Assembly: GCA_951406725.2 (NCBI GenBank)
Contig: OX597820.1
Coordinates: 102,362,001-102,426,000 of the forward strand
Reading direction: 5' to 3'
DNA length: 64,000 nucleotides
From: Octopus vulgaris
Lineage: Eukaryota
Below the pieces are notes generated by a model that did no database searches, had not been told where the DNA came from, and saw only the letters and a program-made list of their open reading frames with translations. Made by a program: the position numbers and the translations under genes. This document shows positions 42,980 to 49,755 of this stretch, one piece after another. Numbering within the stretch: position 1 is the stretch's first letter; the number at the start of each line of letters is the position of its first letter.

Positions 42980-43150
42980 TAAGGGAAACAAATCCAGGTA
43001 GACATTTTTCGGTCATAAGACCTCCTCAGCGGAGGCTGTAACATTCTAACATTATTGAAGGTTTTTCAAGTAAGGGAAGCAACTCTAGATAGACATTTTT
43101 CGGTCTTATAAGGCCTCCTCAGCAAAGGCTTCAATGTTTTAACGTAATTG
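42980..43150 (-). ncRNA. Two tandem ~91-bp units, each with a minimal hammerhead core
   Basis: Minus: CTGAGGA-GGTC-TTAT-GACC-GAAA-AAT-GTC and CTGAGGA-GGCCTTATAAGACC-GAAA-AAT-GTC; stem I pairing poor. Confidence 0.5.
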
Positions 43151-46607: not shown

Positions 46608-47223
46608 CCATGTATATGTGTGATTGCGTGTTTATGTATACATACATACATACACACCTGTATAAACATAAGCAGAATAAATATAGGAAGTTAGGAAATA
46701 GACAGGTAATTGTGTTGTAGACACCATAAAACATAAATGATTAAGTAAAATAAATATATGAAACAAACTGAATATATGAATTAATTTGTTATAATCGATA
46801 TCTTAAGTTCATGGTTTTGTTATACAATTGTTTTCATACCCAGAAGAGGATTTCAGAGTTAATTGGGAGTAGACACAAGAAATATAACTGAATAACATAA
46901 TTTAACGACGGTGAAAATATATGACGGCGGCGTTCACAGCTCCTGATTCTTCTGTAATTTTAATTTTTATCTTTTACTCGTTTCAGTCGTTAGGCTGTGT
47001 CCATGTTGGGGCACCGCCTTGAAGGGTTTTCAGCCGAACAAATCGATCCCAGGACTTAATTTTTGAAAATGTACTGCTTTTTCTATCGGTGTCTTTTGCC
47101 GAACTTCTAAGTTACTGGTACGAAAAAAACACACCAACACCGGTGGTCAAGCGGTTGTAGGGGACAAACACAAACACAAAGGCACACACATACATACATA
47201 CATACATACATACATACATACAT

Positions 47224-47318
<95 letters not shown>

Positions 47319-47331
47319 CGAACACACACAT

Positions 47332-47762
47332 ATAGTAATGTTTATATGCTAACAACGTGGCAGTCCTGTAAAAGACATGTTACTGTTGCTTCAGCCCCAG
47401 GAGAACATTTCTTCTACCTGGCTAACGACGCAGTCTGTGATCGTATATAGCATTTGCAAGAGTGGATGGGTGTTTGTCATCGCTTCCATCTTTAGCCTTA
47501 CGTGATACTAACAGACTTAGGTTTCTAGATGTTATCCGTCTTCAGTGTGAGACCATCACCAGCTAGTGACGAAAACTATCTCCACTCGCAAATACTATAT
47601 ATTCTTTAAGCGATGCACTGTCGTTGATATCGTATCGAGAAAAAGAATATGTTTTAAATCTCTGGGCGAGAGAAATACAGCAATAGTATCGGATAGCAAT
47701 GTTTATATGCCAACATGACGTGGCAGTTCTGTAAAGGACGATGTTACAGTTGTTTTAGCCCC
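47332..47762 (-). mobile_element. Retrozyme-like element: 361-bp unit plus ~70-bp terminal redundancy, one hammerhead
   Basis: Direct repeats 47332-47398 and 47693-47762; internal complementarity 47446-47467 with 47579-47599; no ORF. Confidence 0.65.
47508..47551 (-). ncRNA. Type I hammerhead ribozyme with canonical core
   Basis: Minus: CTCACA-CTGAAGA-CGGAT-AAC-ATCTA-GAAA-C-CTAA-G-TC-TGTTAG; stem I 5/6 paired; GUC site. Confidence 0.75.
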
Positions 47763-47779
47763 CTCCATATATATATATG

Positions 47780-47815
<36 letters not shown>

Positions 47816-49171: not shown

Positions 49172-49755
49172 AAAGCGGCGAGCTAGCAGAAACGTTAGCA
49201 CGCCGGACGAAATGCGTAGCCGTATTTCGTCTGCCGTTGTGTTCTGAGTTCAAACTCCGCCGAAGTCGACTTTACCTTTCATCCTTTCGGGGTCGATAAA
49301 TTAAGTACCAGTTAAGCACTGGGGTCGATATAATCGACTTAATACCTATGTCTATCCATGTTTGTCCTCTCTATGTTTAGCCCCTTGTGGGTAATAAAGA
49401 AATAGGTATTTCGTCTGCCGTTATGTTCTGAGTTCAAATTCCGCCGAAGTCGACTTTACCTTTCATCCTTTCGGGGTCGATAAATTAAGTACCAGTTAAG
49501 CACTGGGGTCGATATAATCGACTTAATACCTATGTCTATCCATATTTGTCCTCCCTGTGTGTAGCCCCTTGTGGGTAGTAAAGAAATAGGTATTTCGTCT
49601 GCCGCTACGTTCTGAGTTCGAATTCCACCGGGATTGACTTTGCCTTTCATCCTTTCAGGGTCGATTAAATAAGTACCAGTTATGCACTGGGGTCGATGAA
49701 ATCGACTTCCCTCTCCCCTAAATTTCAGGCCTTGTGCCGTTAGTAGAAATGATTA
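49172..49755 (+). mobile_element. SINE family B, trimeric
   Basis: gtatttcgtctgccg at about 49222, 49406 and 49590 (period ~184 bp). Confidence 0.92.

Follow-up and report, generated by a model that had tools for sequence, protein, structure and literature searches.

A decayed 1.2-unit copy of a retrozyme-type family in Octopus vulgaris and its probable insertion by Penelope-like machinery

The 431-base stretch 47332-47762 on the minus strand of the window (the whole 64,000-nucleotide piece of Octopus vulgaris DNA analysed here) is a 1.2-unit copy of a dispersed retrozyme family, family A, whose RNA sense is the minus strand. The copy is probably a decayed animal non-LTR retrozyme, inserted in a TA tract when the enzyme of a Penelope-like element (PLE) copied a ~355-nt RNA, itself probably circular. 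The parts of this reading differ in strength. That the family is of retrozyme type is close to certain, and it is very likely that Penelope-like machinery copies such retrozymes; a covalent circle is the probable template, judging from the similarity of units within single insertions.

The window copy and its hammerhead

The features of the copy are collected in Table 1. The original prediction described a repeat of about 70 bp recurring 361 bp apart and an insertion within a TA/CA tract, and both descriptions hold: the two terminal repeats align with three gap columns, and simple-sequence tracts flank the copy on both sides. The period is 361 nt from start to start and 364 nt in a second register, against 354 nt for the family-A majority unit, and it is longer because of an ~11-nt insertion. 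The main unit is 85% identical to the majority. The copy is a single arm with its 3' end at site 1 (defined below), and no target-site duplication is detectable at its junctions. From its sequence it is an old, decayed family member, a fossil. Elsewhere in the window, a 184-bp unit at 49222-49708 forms 2.6 tandem copies with 92% matches and resembles a common dispersed repeat of the genome.

Table 1. Features of the family-A copy and its flanks (window positions; initiation sites are putative and folds are predicted)
Feature	Position	Strand	Remark
1.2-unit family-A copy	47332..47762	-	Arm of 424 consensus positions, 5'-truncated
3'-terminal repeat	47332..47398	-	47332 is initiation site 1, then TA/TG tract
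5' partial second unit	47693..47762	-	Last ~70 nt of the preceding round; 86% identical to the 3' repeat
"Tail" between site 1 and site 2	47634..47692	-	Site 2 at ~47634; read through here, internal part
~11-nt insertion	47466..47476	-	Present only in this copy among 12 aligned units
Type I hammerhead motif, decayed	47508..47551	-	Predicted cut 47514/47513
Helix I extension	47502..47559	-	GUGAU 47559-47555 with AUCAC 47506-47502, beyond an internal loop
Long rod stem, hammerhead at tip	47446..47599	-	47446-47467 with 47579-47599; 47474-47484 with 47561-47573
Multi-hairpin domain	47677..47750	-	Contains initiation site 1 (internal copy at 47693)
(ACAT)n(CA)n(TA)n tract at 3' junction	47184..47331	.	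Target microsatellite
(TA)n tract at 5' junction	47763..47812	.	

The window motif consists of helix I (CUCACA, 47551-47546, with UGUUAG, 47513-47508), the core CUGAAGA (47545-47539), helix II, GAAA, helix III (CCUAAG) and GUC, and helix III is a single pair closed by a tetraloop. It had been called a canonical minus-strand hammerhead. The position and the type I assignment stand, but "canonical" does not, because the motif is Rfam-negative (0 matches at E<=10 for 47330-47765) and its helix III palindrome is broken. A C.U mismatch interrupts helix I, and CUAA replaces the family's palindromic CUAG in the loop of helix III; the C.A mismatch at the base of helix II is family-wide in A. In the majority hammerhead of family A all 6 bp of helix I are paired, and helix III is palindromic (ACCUAGGU). 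The self-duplex of the window octamer is worth -0.2 kcal/mol, compared with -11.4 and -10.7 in intact copies. According to the available part of PMC4209133, such hammerheads work as dimers through the helix III palindrome. Because this dimer-forming palindrome is lost, the window copy is predicted to be inert, a dead end unlikely to make a circle itself, and activity is very doubtful. It carries one ribozyme only.

Hammerhead covariation was examined in 20 motifs from four families. Base pairs form in 89.1% of cells, and both partners vary in 9/16 pairs, among them the core pair (C3-G8 or U3-A8) and the palindromic loop (CUAG, UCGA, CGCG). None of 500 shuffles reached this level, in a shuffle that ignores the relatedness of the motifs, and slid controls were only 26-40% paired. 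The motif thus shows covariation between families, with a mismatch at the foot of helix II in A and B (17/20 cells unpaired). A tight hammerhead pattern had 23 exact matches genome-wide versus 0 for the reversed control. Rfam gave no hammerhead match among 98 rows for six family-A loci, and its Hammerhead_1 model matches family C at 32.2 bits (E 4.2e-6), slightly below its gathering score of 34. A 4-nt deletion at the cut site, not above background, is common to two family-A copies from different subfamilies (L002, L014). Further hammerhead-like motifs with a U3-A8 core and a CCGG helix III at L107 and L150 are unlinked to families A-C.

The complementary segments that the original prediction placed on either side of the ribozyme do pair in the predicted fold, where they form a long rod with the hammerhead at its tip. 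Circular folds in the RNA sense, compared with 40 shuffles, gave z scores of -7.4 for the A majority, -4.9 for a B copy and -9.2 for a C copy; the window copy reached only -2.0 (40 shuffles). Circular folding favours the hammerhead strand in all three families, and unit GC is 41-45%. Twelve whole units share 54 consensus pairs, 19 of them with changes on both sides. Both-side changes also occur across families in the helix I extension and in the closing stem of the multi-hairpin domain, which is conserved in families A, B, and C. The accessibility of the start sites in single folds was inconsistent.

Retrozyme families and the ends of their insertions

The homology search covered the animal's own genome (2.8 Gb, 227 contigs). 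The window unit gave 1299 first-look candidates; 40 were scored, with 61 matches, and 30 loci were kept among these 40, at 76-89% identity to the window. Copies of family A are 80-93% identical to the majority (median 88%), so the family is old. A search for two helix III motifs one unit apart returned 51 matches (control 0), one belonging to family A, a two-motif copy, and 50 to a second family, B (L054-L101). Family B is homologous to A along the whole unit in collinear order (global score 210 versus 118 for the best of 200 shuffles) and is younger, with dimers and trimers and a U3-A8 core variant. The same core variant occurs in PLE hammerheads, as stated in the available part of PMC4209133. 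One B subfamily carries U3.G8, a possible intermediate of the core swap. Family C (L148:1087-2047, L152-L196), likewise homologous and younger, was met by chance in a PLE locus. It has a 353-nt unit and 2358 candidates, and its top copies are 98-100% identical and lie on many chromosomes. Arms contain at most 1.86 units in A, 2.97 in B, and 6.02 in C.

The original prediction proposed a retrozyme family and suggested looking for multimers in the genome. Multimers are present (the 51 double-motif matches, and arms of up to 6.0 units). They bear out the family reading, as do the variability of the 5' ends, the structure of the unit and the covariation of the hammerhead. Single pieces of further families occur at L075, L102, and L116. 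In one family-A copy (L005:1087-1921) the 5' side continues into a piece of 28S rRNA in antisense (227 bits in Rfam) and another fragment of the unit, a chimera likely due to template switching during reverse transcription. None of the 24 runs listed for a family-B trimer, all of them contigs, is on record as RNA. Contigs from four runs that were guessed to be RNA cover parts of this trimer, and one bridges a unit junction; such contigs cannot show circles, strand, or ends and carry no weight here.

Insertion ends were mapped in 51 loci of family A, after removal of 3 duplicates, in 43 of family B, after removal of the A dimer and of 4 duplicates or a segmental twin, and in 37 of family C. Loci were chosen by similarity in A and C and by the presence of two motifs in B. 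RNA-sense 3' ends gather at two sites, whose windows were defined after inspection of the data. Site 1 lies ~171-179 nt after the cut (175 nt in the family frame) and site 2 a further 44-60 nt on. Ends fall at one or the other in 45/68 A arms (30 at site 1 and 15 at site 2), 59/67 B arms, and 55/59 C arms. None of the 194 arms ends at its 3' side within 5 nt of the cut site. The 5' ends vary freely, giving arms of 0.1-6.0 units, and they form no cluster at the cut site among the mapped arms of the three families. Site ends are followed by (TA)n in 52/59 cases in B and 53/55 in C. Candidate target-site duplications of 8-13 nt were seen in a few loci (L022, L052, L094, and by eye L057), and most junctions lie within TA tracts.

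Many insertions consist of two inverted arms with their tails outward. Where both ends lie at the sites, there is one arm per site in every case (5/5 in A, 17/17 in B and 19/19 in C, or 41/41); in 22 further two-armed loci at least one end lies elsewhere than sites 1 and 2. Circularly permuted copies had been among the suggested checks, and the copies are not freely permuted, as their 3' ends are fixed at two internal sites. Nor are they the fixed-end, LTR-like copies named as the contrary case: their 5' ends vary, and multimers exist. By analogy with PLEs, 3' ends fixed at two internal positions, roughly half a unit away from GUC, are the signature of Penelope-like internal initiation (PMC11167929). 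Arm lengths that are exact integers of the unit were dropped as a possible signature of circles (within 6 nt, 6/67 in B and 2/68 in A, with no clear excess in C).

Penelope-like partners and the template

The architecture of PLEs includes a tail at one end and an inverted truncated arm, as described in the available part of PMC8557442. In vitro, synthesis by a PLE protein begins within the RNA at two neighbouring sites, which define the genomic "tail" (PMC11167929). The retrozyme families have a similar anatomy, with two internal start sites and an optional tail, an inverted 5'-truncated arm, and an AT-rich target.

Candidate partners are present in the same genome. Two C-terminal GIY-YIG PLE types, together with a young 727-codon type, are abundant; they were assigned to PLEs by visual inspection of their RT and GIY-YIG-like motifs, as Pfam gave no name to either PLE fragment. 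The intact 727-codon PLE (L227-L238) has a C-terminal GIY-YIG-like domain and a hammerhead-like motif, occurs in many identical copies and is very young. It has two ends ~70 nt apart, TA targets and partial tandems, and its arms use different end sites in 6/6 two-armed loci among 12 fetched. A second type (L142:2138-5431), which we take to be Neptune-like, has a 1098-codon open frame with RT, an extra Cys motif and a GIY-YIG-like domain, and more than 10,000 first-look candidates. No PLE ORF was found within the window by tblastn. The window does hold a short tail-end remnant of the 727-codon PLE (701-887, two opposed pieces, 91-94%). It also holds a minimal hammerhead-like motif on the plus strand at 1513-1545, in which the GAAA box is damaged and which a TA tract follows; it is probably a PLE tail end. 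On the minus strand, two minimal hammerhead-like motifs at 42985-43145 lie 93 nt apart (cores at 43122 and 43029), in a tandem arrangement like that of PLE terminal repeats. The retrozyme unit differs from autonomous PLEs in lacking an ORF with RT and GIY-YIG, and it has a full helix I and a palindromic helix III instead of a minimal hammerhead.

The end anatomy of the units is that of PLEs, so they might be solo pseudo-LTRs of an autonomous PLE, that is, 5'-truncated copies of a coding element, and in the main text of bioRxiv 10.64898/2026.07.22.740005 Xenopus retrozymes are homologous to PLE pLTRs. The octopus copies make this reading improbable. Upstream of a unit there is more unit (up to six copies) and never an ORF; no unit copy is attached to one, and tblastn with three PLE queries over 101 loci found only detached fragments, in 4 loci. 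Fifty A loci share no non-unit flank other than common repeats. A search of 50+30+12 PLE loci for termini related in sequence gave none, so the unit is not homologous to any sampled PLE terminus of this genome, although its ancestral origin may lie in a pLTR. The best terminus matches (E 0.019-0.14) were rejected as short and AT-rich, and the family-C copy beside a PLE fragment at L148 is a separate insertion 1.6 kb away. A small terminal-repeat element (TRIM or solo-LTR-like), or chance hammerhead-like words in a repeat, would fit the many top matches that cover the same 431 nt and the failure of Rfam to find the window motif. But the fixed right end is an artefact of the query, copies extend to 1.2-1.9 units, and the hammerhead covaries and matches Rfam in family C, which leaves this explanation extremely improbable. 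An LTR retrozyme or TRIM with type III hammerheads in two fixed LTRs and a 4-bp target-site duplication was rejected, as the type I motif, variable 5' ends and multimers were found instead.

With the retrozyme family and a PLE enzyme taken as given, the form of the template has to be weighed. The original prediction read the copy as about 1.2 rounds of reverse transcription around a ~360-nt circle. A length of 1.2 units alone is no proof of a circle, because the ends bear the signature of Penelope-like internal initiation; such initiation and the tandems of the autonomous PLE mean that fixed ends and lengths above one unit need no circle. The two forms can be told apart by asking whether all units of an insertion go back to a single unit of the template. 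In family B, variants shared by at least five loci occur in all overlapping units 523 times versus 16 discordant cases (352 versus 5 in an earlier count without three loci and gappy columns), distances are 1.2% within insertions and 7.1% between them, and 10 variants private to one locus occur in all units of that locus. In family C, 10 variants private to one locus, in the sense of 37 sampled loci out of thousands, fill all its units (for example 5/5 and 6/6), and private variants span both inverted arms in 4 loci. Family C also has 226 single-unit private changes, and "some units" cases number 8 versus 36 "all units" cases. The signal is weak in family A (15.4% within, 18.6% between). No indel in B starts at the cut/ligation junction at ~107-fold cover, and there is no enrichment. 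This homogeneity favours a single-unit, probably circular template, so the circle of the original prediction gains indirect support; the 1.2 rounds would start at a PLE-type site and not at the ribozyme junction.

The same family and enzyme could also have used a linear template, either an uncleaved multimer or a monomer that has been cleaved but not ligated, the RT jumping between its two ends while they stay close to each other, with any circle a by-product. In vitro, PLE RT starts internally on uncleaved linear RNA, prefers unprocessed RNA, does not need the hammerhead and ignores hammerhead mutations (PMC11167929). The autonomous PLE in this genome makes partial tandems, and family C contains mosaic arrays in which all four combinations of two common variants occur. 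Against a linear template, private variants fill 5-6 units and both arms in C, junctions at the cut site are precise, 5' ends do not cluster there, and no unit-specific difference is convincingly inherited at the same rank within a B subfamily. A linear template is on balance unlikely, at roughly one chance in five; a nicked monomer jumped in cis, or homogeneous source arrays outside the sample, would look the same as a circle.

In the preferred reading, with its circular template, copies with at least two units would be transcribed, hammerheads paired through the palindromic helix III loop would cut out a monomer, and the monomer would be ligated into a circle. A Penelope-like RT/GIY-YIG protein would then nick AT-rich DNA, and cDNA would start at site 1 on one strand and at site 2 on the other. 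Each RT would round the template for a variable distance of 0.1-6 units, the window copy representing 1.2 rounds from site 1. A more specific form, rolling-circle, twin-primed reverse transcription, has about even chances: a PLE RT dimer would grip one RNA circle at the conserved structured domain opposite the ribozyme and prime the two strands of the target at fixed positions separated by 44-60 nt, and the same circle would be copied by both enzymes.

Relation to known retrozymes

Metazoan non-LTR retrozymes have units of 350-390 bp in mussel and 330/350 bp in axolotl (Cervera and de la Pena, 2020, PMC7229834, main text). The family of the window copy is, by sequence, an animal non-LTR retrozyme and has these features of that text: a non-coding tandem unit of 150-450 nt, GC below 50%, a type I hammerhead, a self-paired fold, no LTR features, and co-occurrence with PLEs. 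The one-pair helix III with a palindromic tetraloop resembles HHR_Amex1, and the U.U at the helix II base of family B resembles HHR_Amex2. Target-site duplications, when present, exceed 4 bp in the retrozymes described there. Circular RNAs were shown for those retrozymes, whereas the octopus families are known here from genomic sequence alone. In the main text of PMC7229834 the circular template and the partnership with PLEs are untested proposals, and the two fixed internal ends and inverted arms described here do not appear in it.

The octopus insertions are also like the anole Poseidon PAc (PMC11167929) and the PLEs of PMC8557442, as far as the available parts of both papers go, in two adjacent internal starts downstream of a hammerhead, an optional tail at one end, an inverted 5'-truncated arm, partial tandems, and AT-rich or (TA)n targets. 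Vertebrate non-LTR retrozymes are considered non-autonomous PLE derivatives, in 35 genomes with no mollusc, a case argued in the main text from their joint occurrence with PLEs and from homology to pLTRs; local amplification is held to have produced the tandems (bioRxiv 10.64898/2026.07.22.740005). The octopus families resemble them in having a type I hammerhead unit that occurs singly, as dimers and as multimers, and in their probable dependence on PLEs. Unlike that account, the octopus footprints suggest that multimers arise during insertion, by copying of a single template unit. By the rule of at least two complete hammerheads given in the same text, the window copy does not count as "active".

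Neither octopus nor any other cephalopod is named in the main text of PMC7229834; octopus is also absent from the main text of bioRxiv 10.64898/2026.07.22.740005 and from the available part of PMC7761336, and the available text of the giant squid genome paper counts 235 hammerhead-1 matches without analysis. In the literature covered, no paper was found that describes an octopus retrozyme or end footprints of this kind; a prior listing, for instance in Repbase or Dfam, is possible.

The mobility of animal retrozymes is an open question, and the octopus footprints connect retrozymes with PLE chemistry insertion by insertion and give exact RNA sites, 1 and 2, for testing. The value lies in the young sister families reached from the fossil in the window, with their unusually direct genomic footprints of copying. 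Family C, which is young and has a textbook hammerhead, is the best experimental target. If the rolling-circle, twin-primed reading is true, family C and the co-resident intact PLE would be a live system for showing the spreading enzyme and the circular template.
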